A stretch of DNA of 64,000 nt from Amnibacterium sp. (GCF_036559085.1 NZ_DATBTU010000075.1:68705-132704), one strand, 5' to 3'; counted from the stretch's first letter, positions 14,243-37,156 are shown. The notes: generated from the sequence alone by a model not told the origin. Numbers and translations: made by a program.

Positions 14243-14317
14243 ATCTGCAGGATCTCGGACGATCTGCGGGACCGATCGACCGGATCCCTGCGGCGGACGG
14301 CCGCGGATCCTGCGGAT
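14243..14317. repeat. Nested-palindrome repeat, family 1 (diverged copy)
   Basis: CAGGAT 14248, CGGGAC 14267, degenerate third box, ATCCTG 14307; same 65-nt span as the other copies. Confidence 0.6.
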
Positions 14318-14329
14318 CGCTCGGCGGGG

Positions 14330-15039
14330 CTAGAGCTCCGGCGCGACCGGCTCCAGCGCGGCGCGCACCATCTCGGCCGGGCCCTCGTGCCGGCCGGCGA
14401 ACTCGCGGTAGTCGACCTCGTACCCTTCCGCCTCGAGGGCGGGGACGAGGCGACGGCTGCAGCGCTCGATCGGCAGCACCGGGTCCTCGGTCCCGTGCGA
14501 GACGAAGACCGCGGGGCGTCCGGCCCTGGTCGGCGCGGCGAGGAAGCCGGGGAGAAGGCGAGGATGCGGCTGAAGAGCCGCCCGTTCGTCGTGCCGAGCG
14601 ACAGCGCGTAGGACGCGCCGTCGGAGAAGCCGCCGATCACGATCCGGGCGGCGTCGACCTCGAACCGGTCGAGCACGAACGCGATCGTGCGGTCGATCTC
14701 GGCGACGTCGGGGCCGAATCCGCCGCGGCTCACGTCCCAGGTCGCGTCGCCGGACTTCGGCGCGAGCACGAGGACGCCGCGGCGTTCGGCCTCGACCTGC
14801 AGGAACGGGAGCATGCCCGCGGGGCCGCCGCCCGCGCCGTGCAGCAGGACGACCAGCGCCGCCGGATCCGCGCGCCGCCGTGGCACGAGGAGCGCGGGCC
14901 CGACGCCGGGGCTGCCGTCGAGCCAGGTGATGCCGGGCTCCAGGGCGTCGCGCGTCGGCGGTGCCGGCAGCACGGACAGCTGGCCGCGCCGCCATCCCTC
15001 GCGCAGGTCGTCGGGCACGTCGAGCGGCAGCTTCGTCAC
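14330..15039 (-). pseudogene. Phospholipase/carboxylesterase (alpha/beta hydrolase) with a 1-nt frameshift at ~14550
   Basis: LLHGAGG and GGFSDG (nucleophile) lie in one frame. GFLAAPTRAGRPAVFVSHGTEDPVLP...FAGRH (Asp/His of the triad) lie in another. The switch occurs at TTC TCC CC|GGC TTC. Confidence 0.75.
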
Positions 15040-15123
15040 GCCGGCCACGCTAGGAACCGGGCCTGAGGCGTTCAGGAGCGGCAGCTGGCAGCGCTCCGAG
15101 GGCCGGCCATGCGCGGAGCGACA

Positions 15124-15522
15124 TCAGTCGAAGAGTGCGCTCCAGCCGTCGAGGCGGCTGCGGCCGTGCGCCCATCCGGCGATGAGCATCGTGCGCACCC
15201 AGTCGTCGAGGCCGGCGGCGGTCACGGTGACCTCCGGCGTCGTGCCGTGCACCGACCACTCGTCGACCTCGGTCTCGGGCGAGCGCACGTCGACCTCGTA
15301 GTCGCCCTCGGTCTCCAGGTACTCGGCGAGCTCGTCCGCGATGTCCTGGTCCTGCGCCGCGAAGGCGAACTCGATCCGCACCGCGCCCGTGGCATCTCCT
15401 GCCACCGACTCCGCCGTGTCGCCGTTCATCTCCTCGAGCTCGGCGAGGTTCTCCGCCACCCAGTCCGCCGGCGCCGCACCGCGCTCCGGCTCGGGCAGCG
15501 TCTCCTCGATCGGGACCGCCAC
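15124..15522 (-). CDS. Acidic protein, RraB-like (RNase E inhibitor RraB-type domain)
   Basis: AAGGAG RBS then GTG 15522; RIEFAF...DELAEYL...EV...LDDWV...LDGWS pattern resembles RraB-family proteins. Confidence 0.55.
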   Translation of the reverse strand: MAVPIEETLPEPERGAAPADWVAENLAELEEMNGDTAESVAGDATGAVRIEFAFAAQDQDIADELAEYLETEGDYEVDVRSPETEVDEWSVHGTTPEVTVTAAGLDDWVRTMLIAGWAHGRSRLDGWSALFD

Positions 15523-15588
15523 GTCGGTCTCCTTCCTCGTCGTCGACCCCCATCGTGCCCTGCCGCGCCCATGGCGAGAGAATGGGGT

Positions 15589-16632
15589 GTGCCAGACGCC
15601 GATGGAGCCGCGCCCTTCCGCCTCGACGTGGGCGGCGATCCCGGCACCGACCCGCTCGCCCTCGCGCGCCGCGCCGCCGAGGCGGAGGCGGAGGGCTTCG
15701 ACGGGATCGGAGCGTCCGAGACCCGGCACGACCCGTTCCTGAGTCTCGCGCTCGCCGCCCGCGAGACGACGACCATCGACCTGCTCAGCACCGTGGCGGT
15801 CGCGTTCGCCCGCAACCCGATGACCGTCGCCCAGAGCGCCTACGACCTGCAGGCGATCTCCGGCGGCCGCTTCCTGCTCGGGCTCGGCTCCCAGGTGCAG
15901 CCGCACATCGAGAAGCGGTTCTCCATGCCGTGGTCGAAGCCCGCCGCCCGGATGGCCGAGTTCGTCCGCGCCGTCCGCGCGATCTGGGCGACGTGGCAGA
16001 CCGGCGAGCCGCTGCGCTTCCGCGGCGAGTTCTACACGCACACCCTCATGACCCCGTTCTTCAGCCCGCCCGCGGTCCCCGAGGGGCCGCCGCCGGTCTG
16101 GATCGCCGCGGTGGGGGAGCGGATGACGGAGGTCGCCGGCGAGGTCGGTGACGGCCTGCACGCGCACAGCTTCACCACCCCGCGCTACGTCACCGAGGTG
16201 AGCGTGCCCGCGCTCGCCCGCGGCGCGGAACGCGCCGGCCGGGACGTCGCTGAGGTCGGGATCTCGCTGCCCGCCCTGATCGCCGTCGGCGACGACGACG
16301 CGGCGCTGCAGGTGGCCATCCGCGCGACGAGAGCGCAGATCGGCTTCTACGGCAGCACGCCCGCCTACTTGCCGGTGCTCGCGGCGCACGGCTGGAACGA
16401 CCTGCACGAGCGGCTGCACGAGGCCTCCCGTCGCGGCGACTGGGCCGCGATGGGCGACCTCGTGTCCGACGAGGTGCTCGAGACCTTCGCGGCGATCGGA
16501 TCCGCCGAGTCGGTGGCGCGGGAGCTCCGATCCCGGTACGCCGGCGTCGTGTCGCGCCTCTCGTTCAGCGCGAGCTACCCGATCGCGCCGCAGACCACCG
16601 CCGCGCTCGTCCGAGGGCTCCGCACCGGCTGA
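15589..16632 (+). CDS. LLM-class F420-dependent oxidoreductase (TIGR03617-like)
   Basis: ETRHDPF, VAFARNPMTVAQ, SGGRFLLGLGSQVQPHIEKRFSMPW, TLMTPFFSP. Confidence 0.85.
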   Translation: MPDADGAAPFRLDVGGDPGTDPLALARRAAEAEAEGFDGIGASETRHDPFLSLALAARETTTIDLLSTVAVAFARNPMTVAQSAYDLQAISGGRFLLGLGSQVQPHIEKRFSMPWSKPAARMAEFVRAVRAIWATWQTGEPLRFRGEFYTHTLMTPFFSPPAVPEGPPPVWIAAVGERMTEVAGEVGDGLHAHSFTTPRYVTEVSVPALARGAERAGRDVAEVGISLPALIAVGDDDAALQVAIRATRAQIGFYGSTPAYLPVLAAHGWNDLHERLHEASRRGDWAAMGDLVSDEVLETFAAIGSAESVARELRSRYAGVVSRLSFSASYPIAPQTTAALVRGLRTG

Positions 16633-16641
16633 CCCGGCCCG

Positions 16642-16851
16642 TCACTCCTCGGGCGGCGCGTTCCGGCGGCTCGCCCGCACGAGCACCACGATGCCGGCGA
16701 TGATCACGACGGCCCCGATCACGCTGACGACGACCCAGAGCACCTCGGCGAGCCCGTCGGTCACGGCGAGCTGCGCGATCACGCCGACGAAGAGGATCAG
16801 CACGCCGAGCAGCGTCAGGGCGACGCCGAGGCGGGAGGGTCGGCTGGGCAC
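16642..16851 (-). CDS. Small two-helix membrane protein, hypothetical
   Basis: 69-aa ORF with two hydrophobic segments and typical codon usage. Confidence 0.6.
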   Translation of the reverse strand: MPSRPSRLGVALTLLGVLILFVGVIAQLAVTDGLAEVLWVVVSVIGAVVIIAGIVVLVRASRRNAPPEE

Positions 16852-16901
16852 CCGGTGACGCTACTCCCGGACCGTATGAGCGCCCCACCCGCGCCCGCTG
16901 C

Positions 16902-16979
16902 GTGCGTTCTGCAGGATCCCGCGCGGTCTGCAGGACGACGCGCCGATATCGGTCCTGCACACCGCACGCCGTCCTGCAC
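16902..16979. repeat. Nested-palindrome repeat, family 1
   Basis: CAGGAT-13-CAGGAC-15-GTCCTG-13-GTCCTG; 71/78 identical to 17556-17633. Confidence 0.85.
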
Positions 16980-17008
16980 TCCGATCATGGCCGGCGGCGC
17001 CGCCCGGG

Positions 17009-17419
17009 CTAGCCGCCGATGGCGAGCAGCACGCAGAGCACGGCGAGCGCGGCGGTGATGCCGCCCATGCCCCAGCGCTCGAGCGGATGCCGCCCGGCGA
17101 GGTTGCCCGCCGTGTTCAGCGCGAACAGTCCGGCGACGATCCAGACGCCGACACGGACGACGGGGCTGCCCGGCTGGGCGGCCCCGAGCATCCCGCCGTG
17201 GAGCAGGAGCAGGCCGCCGATGCCGAGCAGCACGATCGCGGTGATGGCGCTGGCGACGCGGAGCCGCTGGGGGAGGCGGCCGTCCGGTTGCGCCGACCGA
17301 CCGCCGTACGCCGCGCCGGCGAGCGGGGCGCCGGCCGCCAGCGCCACCTGGAAGGCGGCGCCGAGCAGCAGCAGCACGAGGGCGACCGCCGTGAGGACCG
17401 CGACGACGGTGTGGGGCAT
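17009..17419 (-). CDS. Four-helix membrane protein, hypothetical
   Basis: 136 aa; ALAAGAPL...AYGG...LPQRLRVAS...LFALNTAGNLAG...ERW; GGAAGGA RBS-like sequence upstream. Confidence 0.75.
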   Translation of the reverse strand: MPHTVVAVLTAVALVLLLLGAAFQVALAAGAPLAGAAYGGRSAQPDGRLPQRLRVASAITAIVLLGIGGLLLLHGGMLGAAQPGSPVVRVGVWIVAGLFALNTAGNLAGRHPLERWGMGGITAALAVLCVLLAIGG

Positions 17420-17555
17420 GCCGGTTCCTTCCCTGTCGACCCTCCGGAAGGCCGGCGCGGGTGCTCCTCACCGTATCGATGGGGGAGCGGAGCCCGAGGC
17501 AGCGCGCGGCAGCGCCCGCCGCTGTCGCAGCGCGGGCCCGCATCCCACCCTTCGT

Positions 17556-17637
17556 GTGCGTTCTGCAGGATCCCGCGCGGTCCGCAGGACGACACATCGA
17601 TATCGGTCCTGCGCACCGCTCGCCGTCCTGCAGAACG
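17556..17637. repeat. Nested-palindrome repeat, family 1
   Basis: CGTTCTGCAGGAT-13-CAGGAC-15-GTCCTG-13-GTCCTGCAGAACG; outer arms fully complementary. Confidence 0.85.
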
Positions 17638-17723
17638 ACCGAGGTCGCCCGGCGCCCTGTGGACAACTCCTGCGGGCCGGCCCCGGCGCGCGTCACACTG
17701 CGCGGGTGGCGAGGGAGGCCGAC

Positions 17724-17900
17724 GTGAAGACACTGCTCACTGACGTGCGGACGCGGATCGACGACGAGCGGGGCGACGTGCCCGGCTGGGTGCTCGTGAC
17801 GTTGATGACCGCAGGACTGGTGGTGCTGCTGTGGGGCGTCGCCGGCCCGGCGCTCACGAACCTGTTCCAGCAGGCGATCTCGAGCGTCTCCGGCATATGA
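17724..17900 (+). CDS. Flp-like pilin
   Basis: GGGAGG RBS; DERGDVPGWVLVTLMTAGLV, a class III signal-peptide-like G|D site followed by a hydrophobic helix. Confidence 0.8.
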   Translation: MKTLLTDVRTRIDDERGDVPGWVLVTLMTAGLVVLLWGVAGPALTNLFQQAISSVSGI

Positions 17901-18277
17901 CCCCGTTCGGCGAGCGCGGCTCCGCCCCGGTGGAGTTCGTGCTGGTCGGGGTGCTGCTCGTCGCGCTCGTGATCGGAGTGCTGCAGGTCGCGGCCGTGCT
18001 CTTCGTCCGCAACACCGCCCTCGACGCCGCGGCGGAAGGCGCCAGGTGGGCGGCGATCGATGGCGCGCCGGCCGCGGGCGTCGCCCGCACCCGCCAGGTG
18101 CTGACGACGGCGCTCGGACCGGGCTACGCCCGCGACGTGGTGGGCGGCACGTCCGCCGAAGCCGGTATCCCCGTCGCGGTCGTCACGGTCCGCACGCCGC
18201 TCCCGGTGCTCGGCCTGCTGGGGCCCGCGGCCGCGCTCGAGGTGTCCGGTCATGCGGCGCTCGAACCCGCTCCCTGA
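17897..18277 (+). CDS. tadE: TadE-like pseudopilin
   Basis: ERGSAPVEFVLV...AAAEGARWAA. Confidence 0.85.
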   Translation: MTPFGERGSAPVEFVLVGVLLVALVIGVLQVAAVLFVRNTALDAAAEGARWAAIDGAPAAGVARTRQVLTTALGPGYARDVVGGTSAEAGIPVAVVTVRTPLPVLGLLGPAAALEVSGHAALEPAP

Positions 18278-18713
18278 CGGCGGCGCGGAGTCCGGCTCCG
18301 CCGCGGTCGAGTTCCTCACCCTCGGGGTGCTGCTGCTCGTCCCCGTCGTCTACCTGGTGCTCGTGCTGGCGACGCTGCAGGGCGCGGCCTTCGCGGCGGA
18401 GGGTGCGGCGAGGCAGGCGGCGCGCGAGCTCGTGCTGGCGCCCACGGATGCGGACGGGCGCCGTGCGGCAGCCGCGGCCGTCGAGGTCGGGCTCGTGGAC
18501 TGGCGGATCCCCGAGTCCGCAGCCGCGGTCGACGTGCGCTGCGCGCCGGACCCCGCCGACTGCCTCGTGCCGCGCGGCTCGGCGACCGTGACGGTGCGGG
18601 TCGCCGTCGCACTCCCGCTGCTGCCGCCGGCGCTTCGGCTCGGCACGCCGGGCGCCATCCCCGTCGAGGCGACGGCGGTCCAGCGCGTGTCGATGTTCGA
18701 GGTGGCGCGGTGA
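18252..18713 (+). CDS. TadE-like pseudopilin (second)
   Basis: ESGSAAVEFLTL...AAEGAARQAAR. Confidence 0.8.
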   Translation: MRRSNPLPDGGAESGSAAVEFLTLGVLLLVPVVYLVLVLATLQGAAFAAEGAARQAARELVLAPTDADGRRAAAAAVEVGLVDWRIPESAAAVDVRCAPDPADCLVPRGSATVTVRVAVALPLLPPALRLGTPGAIPVEATAVQRVSMFEVAR

Positions 18714-19138
18714 GACGCGGGGACGAGGGCTCGACGGTGCCGCTCATCCTCGTGTTCCTGATGATCGCCGCCGGCTTCGTCGTCGTGGCCGCGGGCGCGA
18801 CCGCCCTGCACCTCGAGCGGCTGCGGCTGCTCACGATCGCGGACGGCGCGGCGCTCGCCGCGGCGGAGTCGTTCCGGGTCGCCGATGCTCGGGTCAGCGG
18901 GAGCACGGTGGTGCCCTCCCTCGGCGACGCGGACGTGCGGGCGACGGCCGCCGCCTATCTCGGTGCGGCGGACACCGCCGGGCTCAGCGACCTGCGGCTC
19001 GACGAGGCGCGCACCCCCGACGGGCGGTCCGCGCTCGTCCGGCTGACCGCCACGTGGCATCCGCCGATCGCGAGCGCGCTGCTGCCGGTCTCGGTCCCCG
19101 TCACGGTGGAATCGACCGCCGCTGCGCGCTTCCGCTGA
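18710..19138 (+). CDS. TadG-related pilus assembly protein
   Basis: DEGSTVPLIL...LLTIADGAALAAA. Confidence 0.8.
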   Translation: MRRGDEGSTVPLILVFLMIAAGFVVVAAGATALHLERLRLLTIADGAALAAAESFRVADARVSGSTVVPSLGDADVRATAAAYLGAADTAGLSDLRLDEARTPDGRSALVRLTATWHPPIASALLPVSVPVTVESTAAARFR

Positions 19139-19224
19139 GGGATCCGGCGACGTTCAGCCGCTTCAGGTGATCCGCGCCGCCCGGGATGCTGGTTGCGTCG
19201 CTCCATGGACGCTGTGGAGCGAGC

Positions 19225-20406
19225 GTGAGCGCGAACGGACGCGCCGTGCTGAAGCCGGACGCACCTGCTGAGGCCGCCGAGGACGGCCCGGCCGGGAGCG
19301 AGACGCCCTCCCTGCTGCAGGTGCTGCGTCGGCCGCTCGCCGATGCCGCGTCGGTGGAGTCGGTCGGCCTCGTGGCCGGCGCAATCGTCTTCGTCGTCGG
19401 GGGCGTCACGACGTTCCTGATCGCGGACGGCCGCGACCTCCCCATCTCCGGGCCGGGCTCCGTCGGTGAGATCGTCGCGATCGGCGGCGCGATCGTCGCC
19501 GCCGTGGTCCTGGTGGCCGTCGCCCTGCTGCTCCGCAGGCGCGAGGCCCGGCTCCACGGCACGGTCCGGCCAGGGCGGCTGCGGCTCCATCCGTTGGACG
19601 CGATCGCCCTCGCGGTCGCGCACGCGATCATCGCCCTGCTCGCCTGGACGGCGATCGCGGCCGTCGTCGAGCTGTCCTTCATCGACGCCGTGGTCTTCCC
19701 GTTCTCGGCGGCCCTGCTCGCCGGCGTGGCGATGGCGGTGACCGCCTACGCCGCCTTCCTGTCCGCGGCGCACCTCAGCGCGACGTCGCTGTCGCTGGTG
19801 CTCGCCGTCTTCCTGGTCGTCGGGATGTTCGCGAGCATGCTCACCGCATCCGATCCGCACTGGTGGCAGAAGAACCTCAGCTCGCTCGGGATCACCGGAG
19901 ACGTCTCCGCGCTCGCGTTCAACCTCACCCTGATCATCGCGGGCGTGATCGTCTCGGCGATCGCGCATGCGGCGACCGTCGCGCTGCCCGACGGGACCCG
20001 GGCCGAGCGCCGGGGCAGGGCGTCGGTGCGCACGTCGCTCGTCCTGATCGGCGTCTTCCTGGCGTGCGTGGGCATCTTCAAGGCGGACGTGTTCTTCTGG
20101 GTCCACACGCTCGTCGCGGTCGGCATGCTCGTCGTCTTCGCCGTGCTGGTGGTGCGGCTGCCGCGGACCATCCCGGCGATGCCGCGCGTGTTCCGGCTCC
20201 TCGGCGACGTCTTCCTCGGCGTGATCGCGTTCCTCGCCGTGCTCTACGTGACCGGCTACTACAACCTCACCGCGGTCGAGCTGGTGTCGGCCATCCTGAT
20301 CTTCAGCTGGATCATCCTCTTCCTGCGGAACACCGGTGCCATCACGTCGGCTCCGGTGCAGGATGTCGTCGAGGGCTCGTCCGTGCCGGCGACCGGGGTC
20401 GCGTGA
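19225..20406 (+). CDS. Multi-pass membrane protein (DUF998-like C-terminal half)
   Basis: About 10 hydrophobic segments; DPHWWQKNLSSLG, FNLTLIIAG, ACVGIF, WVHTLVA. Confidence 0.7.
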   Translation: MSANGRAVLKPDAPAEAAEDGPAGSETPSLLQVLRRPLADAASVESVGLVAGAIVFVVGGVTTFLIADGRDLPISGPGSVGEIVAIGGAIVAAVVLVAVALLLRRREARLHGTVRPGRLRLHPLDAIALAVAHAIIALLAWTAIAAVVELSFIDAVVFPFSAALLAGVAMAVTAYAAFLSAAHLSATSLSLVLAVFLVVGMFASMLTASDPHWWQKNLSSLGITGDVSALAFNLTLIIAGVIVSAIAHAATVALPDGTRAERRGRASVRTSLVLIGVFLACVGIFKADVFFWVHTLVAVGMLVVFAVLVVRLPRTIPAMPRVFRLLGDVFLGVIAFLAVLYVTGYYNLTAVELVSAILIFSWIILFLRNTGAITSAPVQDVVEGSSVPATGVA

Positions 20407-20430
20407 GCACGGCGGGGTGATCCGGTCGGT

Positions 20431-20928
20431 TCAGCCCTGCGGTCCCATGACGAGCAGGCTCGAGGTCGCCGTCGCGTAGACGGTGCCCGCCTCGTCGGTG
20501 AGCACCCCTTCGGCGAACGCGACCCGGCGCCCGCGCTTCACCACGGTGCCGGTCGCCGTCACGGGACCGACCGACGGCAGCAGCGGGCGCAGGTAGCTCA
20601 CCGAGAGGTCGATGGAGGTGTAGCCGGTGCCGGCGGGCAGCGTCGTGTGCACGGCGCAGCCGACCGCCGTGTCGAGCATCGTGCAGGCGAGTCCGCCGTG
20701 GACCACGCCGAGCGGGTTGAAGAACGCCTCCCGGGGGTCGCAGCCGACGGTGATCCGGCCGTCCTCGACGTCGCTGAAGCGCATGCCGAACACCCGCGCG
20801 ATCGGTGGCGCCGGTAGGCGGCCATCGCTCATCCGGCGGAGGTACTCGATGCCGGGGAGGTCCGCGAAGCGAGGCAGCGCCTCCGCGGGATCGGTCCATT
20901 CGACGACCAGGCGGCGATCCGTGTCCAC
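20431..20928 (-). CDS. PaaI family thioesterase (hotdog fold)
   Basis: FFNPLGVVHGGLACTMLDTAVGCAV; GTVVKRGRRVAFAEG. Confidence 0.92.
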   Translation of the reverse strand: MDTDRRLVVEWTDPAEALPRFADLPGIEYLRRMSDGRLPAPPIARVFGMRFSDVEDGRITVGCDPREAFFNPLGVVHGGLACTMLDTAVGCAVHTTLPAGTGYTSIDLSVSYLRPLLPSVGPVTATGTVVKRGRRVAFAEGVLTDEAGTVYATATSSLLVMGPQG

Positions 20929-21048: not shown

Positions 21049-23049
21049 GTGCCGGGGGGCGAGGAACGAGGGGGACGGCTGCGCGCTCGGACCCTGGGGA
21101 TCGCGCTCACCTTCGCCCTCCTCACGCTCGGCGCCCCGGTCGCCGCCGGGGCCGACGAGCTCCCGGCACCGGTCACGGTCGCTCCGGCCGACAGCCCGTC
21201 GCCGGACCCGGCACCCACGGTGGGCGAGCCGGCGCCGCTGCCGTCCGCGCAGGACCCGGCGCCCGCGACCGACCCGCCGACGGGCGACCCGAGCCCGACC
21301 GGCCCGCCGTCGGGTCCGGCGGCGTCGCCGACGCCTGAGCCCTCCATGATTCCGACCGAGACGCCCTCGCCTGCGCCCACCGCCTCCGCGACCCCGCCGC
21401 CGCCCGCACCGCTGCCGCTCGCGATCACCCTGCCCGCCGATCCCGTGCTCACGCTGCCGAACGGCGACGGATTCCGGGACGCCCTCACGGTGACCGCGAC
21501 CGCGCCGATCGCCGCTCCGATCACGATCACGGCCGTCCGCCTCGGAAGGACGATCACCGTCGCGAGGTCCGTCTCGACCACCCCCGACCATGGCGGGTGG
21601 TCGGCCAGGGTGCGGGTCCCGCTCGGATCCCTCGCCGCGGGCTCCTGGACGCTGCATGTCGCGCAGACCGGCCGGAACGTCGCGGCGGCGCACGTCCTTC
21701 GGGTGGGCTCCGGAGCCGTCCGGACCCTCTCGGTCACCCTGGATCGGTCGGCGTACTTCCCCAAGAGTCCCGGCGCGCCCTCGCGGGTCGGCGTGACGGT
21801 GCGGGCCGCCGACGAGACCGGCGCGGCCCTGCCGATCGCCGGCACGCTCACCGCCTCCGCCGGCCGCGCCTCCCGGACCGCGACGATCAGCCGCGTCGCT
21901 CGGGGCGCCGGGCGCGTGTCCGTCAGCGGGTTCCCGGACGGCACCGGGGTGGTGTCGGTCCGCGTCACCGGTCCGTCGGGCGCGTCGCGCACGGCCACCC
22001 GGTCGATCCACCTGGAGCCGACGCTGATCCGCAAGGTCACCGCCGCGCGCTCGTGGCCGACCGTGCAGCCCGTGATCGACGACCAGCTCGACACGGTGAC
22101 CGTCTCGGCGAGTGCGACGACGAGCTCCGGCGTCGTCGTGCCGGTGCACGGGGACATCCGGATCAGCCGCGGCGGCAGGGTCGTACGCACCTGGTCCCTG
22201 ACCTCCTCGGCGATGCGACACGGGGTCTGGGACGGTCGCGTCAAGGGCCTGATCGTCGCCGGCACCTACACCGTCACCGTGCGCGAGCGCGGCCCCGACG
22301 GCGGCACCGTGACCGCCGCGACCACCGTCTCGGTCAGCACGGCCCACCTGCCCTACCGCATCCGCGTCCTCGCGCAGCTTCGAAGCGGCAACGAGCAGGG
22401 CCTCGCGATCGGGCGGATCGGCGGCGCGACCCGCGTCTTCGCGGGCGTCGACGTCGGCGGCGGCAAGGCGCGGATCGACGAGTACGACCTCTCGGGGAAG
22501 CACATCGCCTCCTCAGCACCCCTGTCGCTCGGGCACGCCGCCGAGATCGCCGTGGGCGCGAAGGACGGCCTGCTCTACGTCGCGAACGGCAGCGCGGCGG
22601 CCCCGACGAGCATCGGGGTCGTCGACCCGATCGGATGGCGCCTCGTGCGGACGATCGACGCGGCGGCCCTCGGCGTGAACGGCATGATCGCCACCGACCC
22701 GACGCGGGGGTTCGTCGTCTTCGCGAACCTGCCCGGTGCGCCGTACACGGTGACGCCGATGGCCGCCGACGGGACCTTCGGTGCATCCGTGCCGATCCCC
22801 GATCCGGGTGGCGTGCCACAGGGGATCGAGGTCGTCGGCCACCAGTGGTGGATCTACACGAGTCTCGCGGGTGGCGGGAACCGGATCACGAAGGTCGACC
22901 CGGCGACGGGCCACAGCCTCGGGACGATCGAGCTGGCGATGCCCGGCGAGGGGGAGGGCGAGGCCATCGATGCCGCTACCGGTCGCGTCTACGTCGGCTG
23001 CCACGGCCCGAACCGCTTCGGCGTGCTCGAACGGGTGGTCGTCCGCTAG
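21049..23049 (+). CDS. Secreted protein: Pro-rich stalk, Ig/FlgD-like domains and C-terminal beta-propeller
   Basis: Signal peptide (...GAPVAAGA|DE); Pro/Thr linker; PNGDGFRD and WDGR...AGTYTVTV FlgD-Ig-like motifs; C-terminal repeats with QG/GH/EG turns. Confidence 0.7.
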   Translation: MPGGEERGGRLRARTLGIALTFALLTLGAPVAAGADELPAPVTVAPADSPSPDPAPTVGEPAPLPSAQDPAPATDPPTGDPSPTGPPSGPAASPTPEPSMIPTETPSPAPTASATPPPPAPLPLAITLPADPVLTLPNGDGFRDALTVTATAPIAAPITITAVRLGRTITVARSVSTTPDHGGWSARVRVPLGSLAAGSWTLHVAQTGRNVAAAHVLRVGSGAVRTLSVTLDRSAYFPKSPGAPSRVGVTVRAADETGAALPIAGTLTASAGRASRTATISRVARGAGRVSVSGFPDGTGVVSVRVTGPSGASRTATRSIHLEPTLIRKVTAARSWPTVQPVIDDQLDTVTVSASATTSSGVVVPVHGDIRISRGGRVVRTWSLTSSAMRHGVWDGRVKGLIVAGTYTVTVRERGPDGGTVTAATTVSVSTAHLPYRIRVLAQLRSGNEQGLAIGRIGGATRVFAGVDVGGGKARIDEYDLSGKHIASSAPLSLGHAAEIAVGAKDGLLYVANGSAAAPTSIGVVDPIGWRLVRTIDAAALGVNGMIATDPTRGFVVFANLPGAPYTVTPMAADGTFGASVPIPDPGGVPQGIEVVGHQWWIYTSLAGGGNRITKVDPATGHSLGTIELAMPGEGEGEAIDAATGRVYVGCHGPNRFGVLERVVVR

Positions 23050-24314
23050 GCCGCCCGCGTCCTCGGGATGTAGCGGGGCACCCACCTCAGGATGAGCCCG
23101 GCGCCCACGAGCCCGACCAGGCCCATCACGCCGGCGGCCGCCGCCACCGAGGCGACGGCGGTGACGCCCGCCACGACGAGGGGCGCCGCCGCGTTGCCGG
23201 CATCTCCCGTGAATCGGTAGGCGCCGAGGAACGGCGCAGGATCGTGCCGGGGCGCGAGGTCGGCGCCGAAGGTCATCAGGATGCCGCTGCCGATGCCGTT
23301 CGCGACGGCGAGGAACATCGTGATGGCGACGAACCAGGCGACCGCCGAGTGGAGCCCGGCCGTCGCGAACAGCGCGAGGTGGCCGATCGCGAGCCCGATC
23401 ATCGAGGGCAGGGCGCTCCACAGGCGGCCGAAGCGGTCCATGATCTGGCCGCTCGAGAAGAACAGGGCGAAGTCGATGGCGCCGGCGACGCCGATCACGA
23501 GCGCGATCGTCGGCTCGGGCAGGTGCAGGCTCACCCCGATGAGCGGCACGATCACCTGCCGGCTCGCCCGCAGGCCACCGATCAGGGCGGCGTTGGTCCC
23601 CATCCGGGTGAGGACGCCGCGATGCTCCACGAGGGTGCGGAACAGTCCGACGCGATCGGGCGGTGCCGGTTCCCCGACGGCGTCGACCTGGGGGCGCGCG
23701 GCGGCCGCCCGGATCGCCGACATCCGTCGGGCGGCGAGGACCTCGGTCGGGTCCGGCAGCGCGAGCAGCACCGCGCCCGCGGCGAAGCAGGCGATCGCGT
23801 CGATCCAGAACGCCGCCTGCGTGCTGCCGGCCAGCCCGATCACGGCCGCGGCGATGAAGGGGCCGACGAAGTAGCCGGCCCGGAACATCCCGCCGAGCAG
23901 CGACAGCGCCCGCGCCCGGTAGGCGAGCGGCACGAAGGAGGTCATGAAGGCCTGACGGGCGAGCGCGAACGACGCCGTCGCGATGCCGACGAGCAGCACG
24001 CCGATGGCGAGCACGAACGGGTTCGGCGACAGCAGCGCGACGACGAGGCCGAGCAGCGCCGCGGTGGCCGACCACAGCATCGCGTTCCGCTCGCCGATGC
24101 GGGCGACGATCCATCCGCTCGGCAGGTCGCCGATCAGCTGGCCGAGGGTGATGCACGCCGCGATCAGGCCGGCGAGGGCCAGCGAGGCGCCGAGGTGCAC
24201 GGCGGCGACGGGGATGATCGGGATGATCGCGCCCTCGCCGGTCGCGAACAGCAGCGACGGCAGGTAGACCGGCAGTGCGACGGATCCGAGCCGGAAGGAT
24301 TCGGTCGTCGTCAT
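23046..24314 (-). CDS. MFS transporter
   Basis: 12 hydrophobic segments; [10 protein letters not shown] and GQIMDRFGR motif-A loops. Confidence 0.9.
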
Positions 24315-29200: not shown

Positions 29201-29639
29201 ACTCCACAGTGCGACAGCGGCTCCGCGCCGTCATGGGGATGATCGGTTTCGACATTGCCTGATCTACGACGGAAAGCGGGCCGAGGATGCGTGCTTATCT
29301 CGATAACGATGCACGCAAACAACAGGTGCCAGTAAGACTCGCACCGCCTTCGCTCTCGCTGCGTAAGCAAGAGTAGACAAGGCCGTCGGACCGGGTTCGC
29401 CTCCGCCCCGGTATCCGGCGTCATCTAGGGGGCTTGCTGCGGAAGTCCTGCCTCGGGGCTCCGTGGGACTCGAACCGGGACTGGGCCTGTCGTCCGTAAC
29501 CTGCCTGTGGCAAGGGACGGGGCCGAGCAGAACGTCACACACAGGCTGCGCCCGGAGAAGACGTCGTTCTCCAGCAGTGGACGGGGGTTCGATTCCCCCC
29601 ATCTCCACTCCTCGCGCGGACCGCTGTCGCACTGCGGAG
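29201..29639 (+). repeat. Long inverted repeat bracketing the tmRNA (arms 29201-29228 and 29613-29639)
   Basis: ACTCCACAGTGCGACAGCGGCTCCGCGC vs reverse complement of the right arm ACTCCGCAGTGCGACAGCGG-TCCGCGC: one mismatch, one bulge. Confidence 0.85.
29235..29606 (+). ncRNA. ssrA: tmRNA; tag reading frame (A)ASKTRTAFALAA at 29328-29366
   Basis: 5' GGGGATGATCGGTTTCGAC; 3' GGGGGTTCGATTCCCCCATCTCCA; acceptor GGGGATG/CATCTCC; ALAA-stop tag; located near smpB. Confidence 0.96.
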
Positions 29640-29660
29640 TCGATCGCATCGATCGTCGTC

Positions 29661-30908: not shown

Positions 30909-30922
30909 GGGGGCATCCTGCC

Positions 30923-31564
30923 TCACTCCGGCCGGATCGGGATCCCTCCTGGCTGGGGAAGCACCCCGTCGCGCTCGAGCGCGAGCAGCTGGACCTTCGC
31001 GGCCGCGCCGCCCCGGTAGGCGCCGGTCGTGCCGTCGGAGCGGACGACGCGGTGGCACGGCACGACCAGGGGCACCGGGTTCGTGGCGCACGCGGTGCCG
31101 ACGGCCCGGACCGCGCGCGGGTTGTCCGTGCGGGCGGCGAGCGCGGCGTAGCTGATCCGGACGCCGTACGGCACGGCCTTCAGCTGCTCGAGCACGGCCA
31201 GCCGGAAGCCCCGCGCGAGGCGCAGGTCGATCGCGCCGGTGTAGGGCTCCGCGCCGCCGGCGAAGTAGGCGTCGAGCCAGGCGGCGACCGCGTCGAGCCG
31301 CTTCGGCGACCGCAGCACCCGCGGGCCGACTCGGGTCGCGAGCTCGTCGAGCACGCCGTCCTCGTCCTCGATGGCGAACGCGAGCCGGGCGACGCCGGCC
31401 TCGGTCGCCGCGACGAGCAGCGGTCCGAGGGGCGAGTCCACCCGGCGGTAGTGCACGTCGGGGGAGTCGTCGCCCACCGCTGCCGCCTCGAGGCGGGCGT
31501 GCAGCCGGGCGAGCAGCGCCGGATCCGCGTCCGGCACGGTCAGCGGGGCGAGTGTCTCGGTCAT
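30923..31564 (-). CDS. ogt: Methylated-DNA--protein-cysteine S-methyltransferase with N-terminal extension
   Basis: DSPLGPL, VPYG..ISY, RAVGTACATNPVPLVVPCHRVV (active-site Cys). Confidence 0.95.
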   Translation of the reverse strand: MTETLAPLTVPDADPALLARLHARLEAAAVGDDSPDVHYRRVDSPLGPLLVAATEAGVARLAFAIEDEDGVLDELATRVGPRVLRSPKRLDAVAAWLDAYFAGGAEPYTGAIDLRLARGFRLAVLEQLKAVPYGVRISYAALAARTDNPRAVRAVGTACATNPVPLVVPCHRVVRSDGTTGAYRGGAAAKVQLLALERDGVLPQPGGIPIRPE

Positions 31565-32082
31565 GCGATCTCCTTCCCGGCGAGCAGGGCGCGGAGCCGC
31601 TGCACGCCGTCCGAGGCGGCCTTGCGAGCCGCGGCCGGGGTGGTGCCGGTGAGGTCGGCGACCTCCGTGAACGGCACCCCGGCGAGGTGGTGGTGCACCA
31701 CCGCGGCGCGCTGCCGCGGTGGCAGGAGCTGCAGCGCGGCCCACAGGTCGAGGTCGCGGTCTCCCGGGACCCCGAGCCGCGAATCCGTCTCGGGCAGCTC
31801 GTCCGTGGGGATCGCGGTCCGCGCCTGTGCCCGCAGCACGTCGATGGCCTTGCGGTGCGCGATGGTGACGAGCCAGCCGGCGGTGTTCCCATCGAAGGCG
31901 GGCCAGGCGCGCATCGCGGCGAGGAAGGTCTCGCTCCAGGCGTCCTCGGCGTCGTGCTCGACCAGCATCCCGCGGCAGACCCGCCAGACGAGGGCGCCGT
32001 GCTCCTCGACCACGCGCTCGAACGGGGCCCTGCCGGCGGCGAGGTTCGCGGGCCGGATCGCTCGGGTGGGGGATGCGCTCAC
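31561..32082 (-). CDS. ECF RNA polymerase sigma factor, translationally coupled to ogt
   Basis: DAEDAWSETFLAA, WLVTIAHRKAID (region 2), LPPRQRAAV...EVADLTG (region 4); ATGA overlap with ogt. Confidence 0.9.
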   Translation of the reverse strand: MSASPTRAIRPANLAAGRAPFERVVEEHGALVWRVCRGMLVEHDAEDAWSETFLAAMRAWPAFDGNTAGWLVTIAHRKAIDVLRAQARTAIPTDELPETDSRLGVPGDRDLDLWAALQLLPPRQRAAVVHHHLAGVPFTEVADLTGTTPAAARKAASDGVQRLRALLAGKEIA

Positions 32083-32088
32083 ATCAGG

Positions 32089-32916
32089 TCAACGCGCGGC
32101 GGCGTCGGGATGTGAGGTGCGCAGCCCGATCTTCTCGAGCGCGGCCTCGTGCAGGAGGCCGTTCGTGGCGAGCGCCGTGCCGTGCCAGGGGCCCGGCCGG
32201 CCGTCGAGGGAGGTGAACCGGCCGCCCGCCTCGGTGATGATCGGCACGAGCGCGGCCATGTCCCACACCTTCAGGTCCGGCTCCCCGGCGACGTCGACCT
32301 GGCCCTCGGCGACGAGCACGTACGACCAGAAGTCGCCGAGGCCGCGGGTGCGCCAGCAGCTGCGGGCGAGCGCGAGCAGCCCGTCGAGGGCGCCGGCGTC
32401 GTCCCAGCCCTGCAGCGAGTTGTAGCTGAGCAGGGCGTCGGGCAGCTCCGCCACCTGCGACACCGAGATCCGGGCGGGGGCGCCGGTGCCGCGCTCGGTG
32501 ACCGTGGCCGTCCAGGCGCCGTTGCCGCGCGCGGCCCACCAGCGGCGCCGCAGCGCGGGGGCGGCGACGACGCCGAGCACCGGCTCGCCGTCGACCGCGA
32601 GCGCGATGAGGGTGGCCCAGATCGGCAGGCCGCGGAGGAAGTTCGTCGTGCCGTCGATCGGGTCGATGATCCACTGGCGGCCGGGCAGCGGCTCGCCGCC
32701 GTACTCCTCGCCGAGCACCCCGTCGTCGCGGCGGGCGTCCCGGAGCGCTGCGCGGAGGGCCTGCTCGATCGCCTGGTCCGCATCCGTGACCGGCGTGCGG
32801 TCGGGCTTCGTGGTGATCGTGAGGTCGGATGCGCGGAAGCGGTCGCTGGCGAGCACGTGGGCCATGTCGGCGAGATCGAGCGCGAGCTGCAGGTCCTCGA
32901 AGATGCCGGCGGTCAC
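32089..32916 (-). CDS. hisN: Histidinol-phosphate phosphatase (inositol monophosphatase family)
   Basis: KPDRTPVTDAD, GEEYG, WIIDPIDGTTNF, GDFWSY, WDMAA. Confidence 0.9.
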   Translation of the reverse strand: MTAGIFEDLQLALDLADMAHVLASDRFRASDLTITTKPDRTPVTDADQAIEQALRAALRDARRDDGVLGEEYGGEPLPGRQWIIDPIDGTTNFLRGLPIWATLIALAVDGEPVLGVVAAPALRRRWWAARGNGAWTATVTERGTGAPARISVSQVAELPDALLSYNSLQGWDDAGALDGLLALARSCWRTRGLGDFWSYVLVAEGQVDVAGEPDLKVWDMAALVPIITEAGGRFTSLDGRPGPWHGTALATNGLLHEAALEKIGLRTSHPDAAAR

Positions 32917-32925
32917 GGGCTCAGC

Positions 32926-34020
32926 CTAGGGATCCTCGTCGTCCGCGCCCACGACCCGTCCGCCCCTGGCCTCCAGCAGCCGCTGCAGCGACTCGAGCCG
33001 CCGCCGGCCCGCCTCGCCGAGCTCGCCGCCGTTCACCCGGTCGACGATCTCCCAGTCGTGGGCGTCCTGCAGCAGGATGCCGTCGGGCGGGTCCACGACG
33101 GGGCGGCTCCGCGCGACGAACGACCGCAGGATGTTCGCCGGGTCGACGTGGCCGAGGCCGAACGACCGGATGCCCGGGGTGTCGATGACCCAGCCGGTGG
33201 CGGGGAACCCGGCTGCGACGTCCTCGGGGGTCGCGCGCACCCGCAGCGAGATGCTCGACGACGAGGTGTGCCGGCCGCGGCCGGTGACCGCGTTCACGAC
33301 GCCGGTCGCCCGGCCGGCCTCGGGCACGAGCACGTTGACGATCGTGGACTTGCCGACGCCGGAGTGCCCGACCGCGACCGTGGTGCGGCCGAGGAGCAGG
33401 CGGCGCAGGTCCGTCAGGTCCTCGCCGCGCTGCGTCGTGACGGCGGTGAGGTCGAGCGGCGCGAACTCGGCGAGCAGCGGCGCCGGATCGGCGAGGTCGG
33501 TCTTCGTGACGAGCAGCACGGCGTCGAGCCCGGCGTCGAACGCGGCGACGAGGTAGCGGTCGATGAGCGCCGGCCGCGGCTCGGGGTCGGCGGCCGCGAC
33601 GACGATGAGCAGCTGGTCGGCGTTCGCCACCACCACCCGCTCCACCTCGTCCGTGTCGTCGGCGCTGCGGCGGAGCACGGTGCGGCGGGGCTCGATCCGG
33701 ACGATGCGGGCGAGGGTGCCGGCTTCGCCGCTCGTGTCGCCGACGACGTCGACCGCGTCGCCCGTGACGACGCCCGCCTTGCCGAGCTCGCGTGCGCGTG
33801 TCGCCGGCACGTCCCGCTCCTCGGGCGTCCCCTCGAACAGGAGCACCTGCATCCGTCCGCGATCGACGGTCAGCACGCGCCCGGGCACGGCGTCCTCGTA
33901 CGCGGGCCGCTGCTTCGTGCGGGGCCGGGAGCCGCGCGGGTTCGGGCGGACGTGCGCGTCGGACTCGTCGTACTCCCCGTACGGGCGGTCGTCGTCATCG
34001 TCGTCCGTCAGCCAGCTCAT
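32926..34020 (-). CDS. rsgA: Ribosome small subunit-dependent GTPase A
   Basis: Circularly permuted GTPase motifs [26 protein letters not shown]. Confidence 0.93.
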
Positions 34021-35339
34021 CCGAGCATCCGCCCCCAGCGGTCCGGGAAGTCGGGCATCGTCTTGCTCGTCGTGCCGATGTCGTCGACCGTCAGGCCGTC
34101 CACGGCGAGGCCGAGCAGGGCGCCCGTCGTCGCCATCCGGTGGTCGCCGTAGGCACCCCACGGCCCCGCGGGTGTGTGCAGCGGGCCGGGATCGACGACG
34201 AGTCCGTCCTCGGTCTCCGTCGTCGTGGCCCCGACGGCCGTCAGCTCGGCGGCGAGCGCCGCGAGACGGTCGGTCTCGTGGCCGCGCAGGTGGCCGATGC
34301 CGGTGAAGGTGCTGCGGCCGTCCGCGAAGGCCGCGAGGCCCACCAGCGTCGGGGTGAGCTCGCCGGCCTCCGACAGGTCGAGGTCCACCGCCGTCAGGGG
34401 CCGCGCGAGGGCACCGGCGCCGCCGTCCACCACCAGCGTGTCGTGCTCGCGGCGCACCTCGGCTCCGAACGCGGCGAGGAGCTCGCGGAGCCGGGCGCCG
34501 ACCTGCGTCGTCTCGCCGGGCCAGCCGGGCACCGCGACGGTGCCACCGGCCACGAGCGCCGCGGCGAGGAACGGGGCGGCGTTCGAGAGGTCGGGCTCGA
34601 TCGAGACCTCGCGCCCGCGGATGCGGTGCGGCCAGACCCGCCAGGACGCGGCCGGGGGCTCGAGGCCGATCTCCTCGGCGTGCGCGCCGCGACGCCGCAG
34701 CGCGTCGATCGTCATGTCGATGTGCGGCGTCGAGGGGAGCCGGCTGCCGCGGTGCTCGATGACGATCCCGTCGGGCAGCCGCGCACCGACGAGCAGCAGG
34801 CCCGAGACGAACTGGCTCGATCCCGATGCGTCGATGGTCACGCGGCCGCCGCGCACGCCGTCGCCGCCGGTCACCGTGAAGGGCAGGGTCCCGCGGCCGT
34901 CGTCGTCGACGGTCGCCCCCAGCGCGCGCAGGGACAGCACGGTGGTGGCCATCGGCCGGGCGCGCGCCCGCTCGTCGCCGTCGAAGCGGACGGGGCCGTC
35001 GGCGAGGAGGGCGACGGGTGGCAGGAACCGCATCAGGGTACCGGCGAGGCCGCAGTCGATGTCGGCGCCGCCGGCGACGGGCGCGGGCGTGATCCGCAGG
35101 TCCCCGTCGTCCGTCCGCTCGATCGAGGCGCCCAGCTGCCGGAGGGCGTCGACCATGAGATCCGTGTCGCGTGCCTGCAGCGGACGCCGCAGCGTGGAGG
35201 GGCCGTCGGCGAGCGCGGAGAGGACGAGCTCCCGGTTGGTGAGGCTCTTGGAGCCCGGCAGCTCGACCCTCGCCGCGAGCGGTCCGGACGCCGTCGGCGC
35301 GCGCCACCCCGAGGATCCGGAATAGGTCGGCGCGGGCAT
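34017..35339 (-). CDS. aroA: 3-phosphoshikimate 1-carboxyvinyltransferase (EPSP synthase)
   Basis: [46 protein letters not shown]. Confidence 0.96.
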
Positions 35340-35344
35340 CGGTT
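35319..35344 (+). promoter_or_regulatory. SigH/SigR-type autoregulatory promoter
   Basis: GGAAT (35319-35323), 18 nt, GTT (35342-35344) matches the SigR/SigH consensus; AAGGAGG RBS at 35373-35379 before in-frame GTG 35382/ATG 35385. Confidence 0.75.
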
Positions 35345-35480
35345 CCACCCTAGGTCCGGCGAACGTGAAGTGAAGGAGGGCGTGATGGCGGCAGCAGTGC
35401 TCGACGCGCCGATCCGCGCTCAGCCCGCGCTCGCCCCACGTCCGATCCGCGCCGAGTGGCCGCCCGTAGAATCCTGGGCC

Positions 35481-36284
35481 ATGTCCACTCCGTCCGACCG
35501 CCCCGTCGACGACCACGAGGTCGTCCCCTCCGTCGATCAGGACGAGGACCTCGAGACGCAGGACGAGGACCTCGACGAGCAGGTCGACGAGGCGCCCGAC
35601 GCAGAGACGCTCGAAGACGAGACCGAGGCCGTCGAGGAGGAGCTCGAGGACGTCCCGATCGCGATCGGCGACGAGGAGCTGCGCAGCCTCTTCGAGGAGC
35701 AGGCGCTGCCGTTCCTCGACCAGCTCTACGCGGCGGGCATGCGGATGACCCGCAACCCGGCCGACGCGCAGGACCTCGTCCAGGAGACGTACGTGAAGGC
35801 GTTCAGCGCCTTCCGCCAGTTCCAGCAGGGGACGAACCTGAAGGCCTGGCTGTACCGCATCCTCACGAACACGTTCATCAACAGCTACCGCAAGAAGCAG
35901 CGGGACCCGTACAAGAACACCATCGACGACCTCGAGGACTGGCAGCTCGGCGAGGCCGTCTCCACCACGTCGGCGTCGCGGGTGTCGCGGTCCGCCGAGG
36001 CGGAGGCGATCGACCACCTGCCCGACTCCACGGTGAAGGACGCGTTGCAGTCCATCCCCGAGGACTTCCGGCTGGCGGTCTATCTCGCCGACGTCGAGGG
36101 CTTCTCCTACCAGGAGATCGCCGACATCATGAAGACGCCCGTTGGCACCGTGATGAGCCGCCTCCACCGAGGCCGCCGGCTCCTCCGGGACCGTCTCACC
36201 GATTACGCACAGGAACGCGGGATCGCGATGGGCGCCGTGTCGCGCCGCGCCGCGCCCGCTCGGAGAGGGGCAGTGACGCCATGA
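35481..36284 (+). CDS. sigH: ECF sigma factor SigH/SigR (short form; possible long form from 35382/35385)
   Basis: [55 protein letters not shown]; TAGAAT -10 at 35467-35472. Confidence 0.93.
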
Positions 36285-36523
36285 CCGACTGCGGTTGCGA
36301 GAAGGCCAAGCAGGATCTGGAGGAGTACCTCCACCAGGAGCTGGAGCGCTCCGAGTACGCGGACATCACCGAGCACATGGCCGGGTGCGTGGACTGCGCG
36401 GAGGAGCACCACATCGGTGTCGTGCTCACCGAGGCCGTGCGCAGGGCCTGCCGCGACACGGCGCCCGAGGAGCTCCGCGAGACCGTGATGCTGCAGCTGC
36501 GCCTCATCGCGCGGCACGCGTAG
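36281..36523 (+). CDS. rshA: Zinc-binding anti-sigma factor (RshA/RsrA)
   Basis: ZAS motif HMAGCVDC, N-terminal CGC, APEELR; overlaps the sigH stop codon. Confidence 0.92.
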
Positions 36524-36532
36524 GCGCCGAGC

Positions 36533-36733
36533 TCACCTCCCGCCGAAGAGCCTCCGCAGGGGGCCCGGCAGCCGCTCGAGCAGCGCGTCGACGTCGACGC
36601 CGTACTTCTTGAGGGTCTCCGCGTACTGCATCGGATCGACCTGCTCCGGCAGGTGCTGCTCCGCCTGATCGGCGAGCGCGCCCCTGCCGCGCTGCCGCAG
36701 GAAGTCGACGATGGTCGATCGCGGGATCTGCAT
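36533..36733 (-). CDS. Small hypothetical protein (66 aa)
   Basis: MQIPRSTIVDFLRQRG...ADQAEQHLPEQVD...LKKYGVD; typical codon usage. Confidence 0.7.
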   Translation of the reverse strand: MQIPRSTIVDFLRQRGRGALADQAEQHLPEQVDPMQYAETLKKYGVDVDALLERLPGPLRRLFGGR

Positions 36734-36760
36734 GCCGCCAGCCTGACGCATCCGCCTGGA

Positions 36761-36851
36761 CCGGTCCCGGGCGTAGGGGATCGTGCCCGGAGTAGGGGCC
36801 GAGGCGGTGTGTCGGCCTACGCCTGGCACGAATGCCTACGCCCGGCACCGG
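36761..36851. repeat. Nested-palindrome repeat, family 2 (copy A)
   Basis: CCGGTcCCGGGCGTAGGG-13-GTAGGG-17-GCCTAC-13-GCCTACGCCCGGcACCGG. Confidence 0.85.
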
Positions 36852-36986
36852 GCTGCGGCTCACCCCCATGCAGCGGGACGGCGACCGGCTGCGGGCTCCC
36901 TCGGTGGGGCGAGGGGCAGGGACGGATGGTGGGTGGCCGGCTTCTCGAGGCGGGTCGCCACGTATTGATGGCTGGGTCGGTCGGCG

Positions 36987-37057
36987 ACGGAGGATCTGGT
37001 CGGTAGCGGAGGACGCGGAGGCCGATTCTGTCCTCCGGTAGCGACGGAATCCTCCGT
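36987..37057. repeat. Nested-palindrome repeat, family 1 variant
   Basis: GAGGAT 36990, 13 nt, GAGGAC 37009, 15 nt, GTCCTC 37030, 13 nt, ATCCTC 37049; shares GCCGAT in the central loop with the 16902 copy. Confidence 0.75.
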
Positions 37058-37071
37058 TCGCGCCGCCCTCG

Positions 37072-37156
37072 GTGCCGGGCGTAGGGGACCGTGCGCGTCG
37101 TAGGGGCATATCCGGCGTGTCGGCATACACCCGGGACGATTGCCCACGGCCGGGAC
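37072..37156. repeat. Nested-palindrome repeat, family 2 (copy B)
   Basis: Ungapped 65/82 identity with copy A (36767-36848 vs 37075-37156). Confidence 0.8.

Follow-up and report, generated by a model that had tools for sequence, protein, structure and literature searches.

A stretch of 64,000 nucleotides (nt) from an Amnibacterium (Microbacteriaceae) assembly (C75:68705-132704; hereafter the window) contains six imperfect palindromes of ~86 nt, all of them intergenic and built from two 19-nt units per arm. They belong to dispersed families, each of which is paired with its own paralogue of a protein that joins an AbiEi-type winged-helix module to a nuclease domain. The layout of palindrome, gene and palindrome (the cassette) is conserved, the boxes at the core of the 19-nt units co-vary with the protein at a fixed geometry, and the palindromes turn over between close relatives. 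In its logic, REPIN-RAYT is the known system that comes closest, in which doublets of repetitive extragenic palindromes (REP) are coupled to a REP-associated tyrosine transposase (RAYT) (PMC3116915, PMC3337134, bioRxiv 10.1101/2021.07.10.451892), the defining enzyme being absent here. We propose a REPIN-RAYT-like system whose mobilization would be driven by a nuclease, and give this reading a probability of about 0.6. The assembly that holds the window comprises 3.02 Mb in 84 contigs (72.7% GC) and is 92% complete.

Palindrome families and the genes they bracket

A genome-wide scan with the pattern box6-N(sp)-box6-loop-rc-N(sp)-rc, run with various spacers (sp), returned 384 matches at 219 loci for sp=13, compared to ~140 matches at ~125 loci for neighboring spacers that are not multiples of three. 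The palindrome geometry is, therefore, beyond chance expectation, in agreement with the fixed spacing that an earlier interpretation of the window (the sequence-only reading) had noticed. The 73 multi-register loci fall into sequence families, and iterated nhmmer searches placed 149 loci in families A to H (D, 40; H, 27; B, 24; A, 21; C, 20; F, 8; E, 5; G, 4). A further family, I, has 55 loci genome-wide and accounts for a smaller excess of the scan at sp=20. Together, these searches, of the kind that the sequence-only reading had called for, yield ~204 elements in nine families, not a few copies.

Boxes recur within the arms with a period of 19 nt in 134 of 142 cases over five families (A, 34/36; B, 44/44; C, 37/40; E, 9/10; F, 10/12). 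By inspection, families D and G have the same period, which brings to seven of nine the families that share it, and the inner gap is constant within each family. For example, 16 copies of family A align across 97 columns with single gaps at the two ends only. The boxes had initially been taken for 6-nt motifs with free spacers between them; they are actually the cores of 19-nt units in which ~13-16 nt per unit are conserved within a family.

Some elements elaborate on this scaffold. Each arm of a family-D element includes a perfect 14-bp palindrome (TGTCCGCACGGACA; for example, C12:21321-21397), and the two copies of it lie 38 nt (2 x 19) apart, so that D elements can also fold as two small hairpins. 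In an element of the CAGCAGGAC type from another genome (L145; G005:C1:531850-532350, about 165-350), the left arm comprises eight 19-nt units in tandem and the right arm two, which indicates that the unit can amplify by itself. Family I contains a non-complementary 7-nt bubble (AAAYCGG versus TTCCTGC) that gives the element an orientation.

The sequence-only reading likened the palindromes to REPs or REPINs mobilized by an enzyme encoded elsewhere, with HUH/RAYT transposases, DUF559/Vsr-like endonucleases and AbiEi-like proteins as candidates. The first candidate fell: a search with PF01797 (Y1_Tnp) had no match in this 92%-complete genome, although it was positive in 6 of 14 control genomes, and we rejected a RAYT/Y1 transposase as the partner. 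The other two held up. A DUF559 search, prompted by the same suggestion, gave eight matches in the genome, and five families were found to bracket one single-copy gene each in the order palindrome, ~120 nt, gene, <=15 nt, palindrome. Family A brackets a 272-amino acid (aa) gene (C57:40095-40910) with copies at 39727-39815, 39846-39931 and 40911-40997, and family B a 275-aa gene (C5:35096-35920) with copies at 34874-34959 and 35927-36013. The gene at C69:22293-23174 lies between family-I copies (22204-22295 and 23343-23433). Families C and H bracket members of a related 310-aa group (group 2, the other genes forming group 1), one of 314 aa (C75:27156-28097) and one of 310 aa (C44:30396-31325), respectively. 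Every intact group-1 and group-2 gene of the genome (5/5) has a dispersed cognate family. The cassettes contain a single open reading frame (ORF) and no AbiEii gene between the palindromes (neighboring genes were not scanned for AbiEii); the borders of the C5 cassette abut other genes.

The partner proteins consist of an N-terminal AbiEi-type winged-helix DNA-binding module and a C-terminal nuclease domain of the Vsr/EDxHD type (DUF559) or related to it. Group 1 matches Pfam DUF559 (4e-9) and also REase_MTES_1575. Foldseek searches with its AlphaFold2 model (predicted local distance difference test, pLDDT, 95.8; 51 homologues) matched residues ~1-188 to the AbiEi antitoxin (6y8q, E 2e-5) and the C-terminal ~90 residues to the catalytic domain of the EDxHD homing endonuclease I-Bth0305I (3r3p; template modeling score 0.73, root-mean-square deviation 2.7), Vsr (1cw0) and NGO0050 (3hrl). 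Six residues (D211, E221, D223, H228, D235 and R238) are invariant across the 51 group-1 sequences. Furthermore, the nuclease core is the most conserved part of the alignment (column entropy 0.6-1.0), whereas the DNA-binding part is variable, with entropy peaking above 2 in residues 1-30 and 106-135. The group-2 model (pLDDT 93) matched Rv2827c (1zel) and AbiEi and, more weakly, Vsr. PADLOC AbiEi models match the group-2 N-terminus at 4e-11, and an E-x-D-G motif is retained at the group-1 position; the nuclease assignment is weaker for group 2 than for group 1. No NCBIfam model matches either group.

We also identified genes that stand outside this scheme. A 574-aa gene between D copies was considered as the family-D partner and rejected, as it looks like a secreted phosphoesterase and has the same flanking in relatives, which we read as a conserved position. 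A frameshifted group-1 paralogue in two tblastn pieces (C23:53025-53824) is followed by its own palindrome (CTGCGCAAACGACGGAGAAATCGC...), outside the catalogued families, and looks like a decaying cassette. Four other genes (C60:5377-6198, C74:9975-10571, C55:~63226-64110 and C10:~94809-95697) constitute a third and more distant group of DUF559 proteins (~300-330 aa). A palindrome directly follows the C60 and C74 genes, the former perfect with 24-bp arms; none is evident after the C55 and C10 genes, and no copy of a catalogued family lies near any of the four.

Cassettes and palindrome turnover in relatives

Of 41 related genomes, 28 encode group-1 homologues, and those within the genus have 2-12 each. 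At 34 of the 71 homologue loci read, a four-box palindrome whose period is exactly 19 nt starts 1-39 nt past the stop codon (77 nt at one locus), and 31 of these 34 have a second palindrome upstream, with arms at ~-190 and ~-145 from the protein start. Group-2 homologues have an identical cassette layout. The boxes are diverse across loci (TGCAGGA, GTAGG, ACGGAGGA, TCCGGCAG, GACGGCGA, TCAGGA, CAGCAGGA, GGCAGGC, TCGAGCAG), yet the 19-nt period is constant and sister proteins in the protein tree have the same boxes. For example, the E-type protein (L033) is sister to the B-type proteins (L029/L003), not to the A type. The agreement of the boxes with the protein tree, at a constant period, fits the earlier proposal that a box-recognizing protein holds the spacing, and that different boxes reflect paralogous enzymes of different specificity, each paralogue having its own palindrome family.

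The homologues also extend the pairing to further families. E-type boxes follow the homologues L033 and L018, those of the F type L055/57/62/63, and those of the G type L064 and L060; a family-D element lies 5 nt past the stop codon of G007:C408:102-1007. Taken together with the cognates in this genome, all nine families thus have a cognate paralogue somewhere in the genus.

The distribution of palindromes and cassettes varies among genomes. The pattern GCAGGA-N13-GCAGGA has between 1 and 202 occurrences per genome in the genus, against ~0-4 in each other genus searched. Family D is restricted to this genome, G010, G007 and G012 (4 of 21 genomes). Cassette genes occupy syntenic loci in three species; the C57 cassette, for example, is syntenic in G010 and G007, where the gene is 82% and 74% identical and the flanks 90-94%. 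Many metagenomic homologues reside on contigs of only 1.0-1.4 kb, about one cassette, which suggests that metagenome assemblies break at the flanking repeats, a practical consequence of these repeats.

Comparisons with close relatives, a check that the sequence-only reading had proposed, revealed filled and empty sites, with empty sites in G010 and G012. G010, the closest relative, is a 70%-complete bin with two haplotypes. The B-E-B array at 36762-37156 of the window is complete in G010, is represented by one B-like copy in G006, and is replaced by ~27 nt in G012. A 112-nt segment (17536-17647) that holds the A copy at 17556-17641 is missing in G010 between flanks that are ~78% (left) and 91% (right) identical. 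Among 23 isolated A and B sites compared with G010, two are cleanly empty there (C35:21316 and, in one of the two haplotypes, C66:3906), and C14:13041 holds a remnant. Four filled/empty comparisons with G010 yielded no consistent target-site duplication. The sole candidate is the 5-nt GCCCG at 17536/17648, with none at C35:21316 or C66:3906. Several regions of G010 are represented by both haplotypes (contigs C1 and C13, and C18 and C11/C19). At the C66:3906 site, one haplotype has the A element and the other does not, so that a single population appears to contain filled as well as empty alleles.

Whole cassettes are replaced as well. At the C5 locus, which follows a gene that we read from its translation as SdhB-like, the cassette is of the B type in this genome and of the GACGGAGAT type in G010, between flanks that are 100% and 95% identical. 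The limits of the divergence coincide exactly with the outer edges of both palindromes. Hence, the whole cassette is swapped at this locus. We considered that solo palindromes could arise as solo long terminal repeats do, through the insertion of a cassette and later loss of its gene by recombination between the palindromes, and rejected this origin on the content of the extra DNA in G010. At three solo-B sites, G010 has 1.0-1.5 kb more DNA, encoding unrelated genes: an HNH/DUF222-like gene, a probable 2-oxoglutarate-Fe(II) oxygenase (from translation) and a reductase fragment. One such G010 locus (L110; G010:C14:233000-235000), opposite a solo B element in this genome, has a 415-aa ORF with an HNH motif (382-1626, minus strand), which we take to be a DUF222/REP13E12-like endonuclease.

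Proposed mechanism, competing readings and known systems

In the mechanism that we propose, the variable winged-helix module would read one 19-bp unit, and an oligomer, with two protomers on each arm and four on an element or an extruded hairpin pair, would set the 19-bp period. Such an oligomer would explain why unrelated-looking boxes have one geometry. The nuclease would nick or cut its own palindrome, and repair would copy, maintain or relocate it, by analogy with REPIN-RAYT but with a nuclease replacing the HUH transposase. Tolerance of insertions beside gene 3' ends would explain why they persist there, and they may incidentally terminate transcription. A more specific proposition is that the cassettes are undescribed repeat-plus-enzyme replicators: dozens of diversifying AbiEi-winged-helix/Vsr-type paralogues, each of which would recognize its own palindrome on a common scaffold with two 19-bp units in each arm and would spread or maintain it via nuclease-triggered repair instead of transposase chemistry. 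We hold it tentatively, at a little under even odds. The distribution of homologues indicates that such replicators may also be present in other Microbacteriaceae.

Several points weigh against this mechanism. Binding, cleavage and mobilization are all activities that we infer for the partner proteins. To our knowledge, no strand-transfer activity is known for a PD-(D/E)XK/Vsr-type nuclease, and the copying step is without precedent. Families H (period ~10) and I (period 26) depart from the 19-nt period, and families D (40 copies), E, F and G lack a cognate gene in this 92%-complete assembly. Furthermore, the bias toward gene 3' ends described below is expected equally for terminators. Finally, compensatory change affects only 1 of 15 predicted family-A pairs, so that the hairpin form is putative and the protein may read either duplex DNA or an extruded hairpin. 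The family-A consensus structure pairs only in the boxes and the adjacent CGGT/ACCG, leaving 8x8 internal loops; together with the compensatory count, this makes the conservation look like that of recognized sequence units on both arms.

The palindromes could instead be terminators or mRNA-stabilizing hairpins under host selection, with the AbiEi-nucleases as accessory binding or processing factors or regulators. Their placement is consistent with such roles. Using a purpose-built codon-usage caller (2921 genes, 89% coding), we could assign 145 of the 149 A-H loci to a flanking-gene orientation, 63 being convergent, 69 tandem and 13 divergent, against a background of 489 convergent, 1859 tandem and 489 divergent intergenic regions. 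This is a strong enrichment at gene 3' ends and in convergent gaps, with most loci 0-25 nt from a stop codon, and family I is placed similarly. Several copies also fold well. As single-stranded DNA, three of the six window copies fold far better than shuffled sequences (z-scores of -6.4, -5.6 and -5.6), two modestly (-2.2 and -2.1) and one not at all (-0.9). There is, in addition, an actinobacterial precedent, the Tuberculosis Rho-independent terminator motif (TRIT): 147 palindromes are conserved at the ends of Mycobacterium genes, and the authors of that study suspected a factor that binds them (PMC3152330). However, terminators would not be expected to coexist as nine families of lineage-specific content (D in 4 of 21 genomes) or to be present in one and absent from another of two relatives that are ~90% identical. 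Nor does a terminator role agree with the tandem arrays, degenerate copies and doublets, such as those that join E to B copies in 5/5 cases. The 13 A-H copies in divergent promoter regions, the hairpins without a following T-tract and the nuclease catalytic residues that the partner protein retains also argue against it. We consider this explanation unlikely.

It is likewise improbable that the cassettes are free-standing homing-endonuclease genes and that the dispersed palindromes are not copies made by the enzyme but its target or landing sites combined with AbiEi-style autoregulatory operators. The match of the nuclease fold to the catalytic domain of I-Bth0305I would be explained, as would the replacement of the entire palindrome-gene-palindrome cassette at the C5 locus next to a 100% identical flank and the operator-like position of the upstream palindrome, ~120 nt before the start codon. 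Yet the gene is flanked by complete palindromes rather than half-sites, and intact target sites are present alongside it in one genome. Solo palindromes are themselves inserted relative to empty sites in relatives, and the genes keep syntenic loci in three species.

It is very improbable that these are ordinary miniature inverted-repeat transposable elements (MITEs) that depend on a conventional transposase (DDE or HUH) from another locus, the link to DUF559 being coincidental. In favor of this reading, they are short palindromes, dispersed and variable in their presence, and the ends of Tn402, Tn7 and Mu have multiple subterminal binding sites with a period of ~19-22 bp. Against it, the genome has no Y1 transposase, and 5/5 intact group-1/group-2 genes are bracketed by their own family, as are those at dozens of loci in relatives. 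In a MITE, moreover, a target-site duplication of fixed length would flank the terminal inverted repeats, and the four filled/empty comparisons showed no consistent duplication.

The nuclease-driven system that we favor resembles REPIN-RAYT in several respects. Both have short, hairpin-forming intergenic palindromes in tens of copies, a single-copy gene flanked by its own repeat, several paralogous gene-repeat pairs per genome, a syntenic gene locus and no consistent target-site duplication. With ~204 intergenic copies and five genes bracketed by their own family, the elements match REPIN-RAYT in copy number and layout. In contrast, the partner here is an AbiEi winged helix with a Vsr/EDxHD (DUF559) nuclease and not a Y1/HUH transposase, the arm consists of two direct 19-bp units instead of a 20-25-nt REP hairpin with a GTAG tag, and the host is an actinobacterium. 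In REPs, a 20-40-bp hairpin has a conserved tag, GTAG or CGTC, at its foot (PMC3733652); among our elements, which are ~86 nt long, GTAGG is present in family B only, inside all four units, and the boxes of the other families differ. TRIT is the closest published actinobacterial repeat. It is mostly bidirectional, overlaps stop codons at about position -8 and is reported only in Mycobacterium (PMC3152330). Compared by position and description, both sets are conserved palindromes near stop codons in an actinobacterium. However, TRIT is one motif read as a terminator with no described cognate gene, whereas nine families with partner genes and turnover are present here.

The two domains of the partner protein lead to other systems. 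Its C-terminal fold, with invariant residues of the E-D-H-D type (D211, E221, D223, H228 and D235), is shared with I-Bth0305I/EDxHD homing endonucleases and E. coli Vsr. I-Bth0305I is reportedly a dimer with a ~60-bp footprint on a pseudopalindromic site, a long target like the one presumed here. Unlike homing endonuclease genes, the gene described here is free-standing between two complete palindromes, outside any intron or intein, and encodes an AbiEi-like N-terminus; its presumed site is dispersed genome-wide, with whole copies flanking the gene. The N-terminal 180-250 residues have the AbiEi/Rv2827c fold of the type IV AbiE system (6y8q; Rv2827c, 1zel). AbiEi binds inverted repeats, and in the AbiE toxin-antitoxin system its gene has that of the AbiEii nucleotidyltransferase toxin as a neighbor. 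Unlike AbiE, the cassette has a single ORF with a nuclease fused C-terminally, and its repeats flank the gene on either side and also occur dispersed.

We found no report in the papers searched that links DUF559 proteins to dispersed palindromes, or DUF559 or Actinobacteria to REP/REPIN. REP-like repeats are abundant in high-GC Actinobacteria and, as far as we know, no cognate enzyme has been published for them. Here, each family has a specific gene to be paired with, which makes the origin and persistence of such repeats testable. The pairing also suggests a function for the widespread, uncharacterized fusions of DUF559/Vsr-like and AbiEi-like domains, which are currently annotated as 'very-short-patch-repair endonuclease' or 'AbiEi antitoxin domain protein', and would, if true, provide one for DUF559. 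Furthermore, the 19-bp scaffold with swapped boxes offers dozens of natural protein-site pairs for the study of how DNA specificity evolves, from which a recognition code could be read if the proposal is correct.

Palindromes of the window and their surroundings

All six copies reported by the sequence-only reading were recovered in place, with sequences at 14248, 16912, 17566, 36773, 36990 and 37081 that agree with its description, and are intergenic by the codon-usage gene calls. That reading divided them into two unrelated families; the range holds three related ones (A, B and E). The A copy at 14236-14323 (C75:82940-83027), identified by nhmmer, is diverged, with CTGCAGGAT / CTGCGGGAC boxes and a fold z-score of -2.2; it lies in a convergent gap between a T2SSF-like gene (13282-14226, plus strand) and an ORF (14330-14995, minus strand). 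The A copy at 16901-16987 has four TGCAGGA(Y)/(R)TCCTGCA boxes with a period of 19 and an inner gap of 15. It is downstream of a 137-aa gene (17009-17419, minus strand) and is also present in G010. The third A copy (17556-17641; z -6.4) lies in a divergent intergenic region. Family B is represented at 36762-36848 by a copy with GTSCCGGSYGTAGGS units of period 19 (z -5.6) and at 37070-37156 by a degenerate copy with 79% identity to it (z -0.9). The latter forms an E-B doublet with the copy at 36979-37066, which has ACGGAGGAT / GCGGAGGAC boxes of period 19. This copy, listed at 36990 by the sequence-only reading, had been counted with the A elements; it belongs to a separate family, E (CGGAGGA boxes), whose cognate protein is sister to the B type. 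A repeat finder paired 16902-16993 with 17556-17647 (86% identity) and 36762-36848 with 37070-37156 (79%), and also recovered inverted arms.

None of the genes adjoining the window copies was retained as a mobilizer: they are housekeeping genes or lack recognizable domains (T2SSF, luciferase-like monooxygenase, 2-oxoglutarate dehydrogenase, extracytoplasmic function (ECF) sigma/anti-sigma and small ORFs). The 137-aa gene was rejected as well, its bracketing by two A copies being accidental because one of the two is absent in G010. The complete B-spacer-E-B array and a GC-rich hairpin together occupy 36759-37232, between a 67-aa ORF and the stop codon of the 2-oxoglutarate dehydrogenase gene. 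The hairpin (GGGAGGGGCCGACCGGCCCCTCCC; 37186-37216) is perfect, lies directly 3' of that stop codon and is present in G010 and absent from G012; it looks like the gene's own terminator.

The window contains three more palindromes, outside the range of the sequence-only reading: a family-C copy with ATTCCGGGCG boxes of period 19 (6878-6960), a family-H copy with GGGCG boxes of period ~10 (46142-46203) and, positioned from the family-I locus list, a family-I copy (ATCGCGCCGTTCCGGAG...GACACGCCG) at 56446-56536 (C75:125150-125240). No Rfam family matched the palindromes of the window. The only Rfam matches were a transfer-messenger RNA gene (29235-29610, 141.9 bits) and one tRNA gene (10205-10284), both ordinary.

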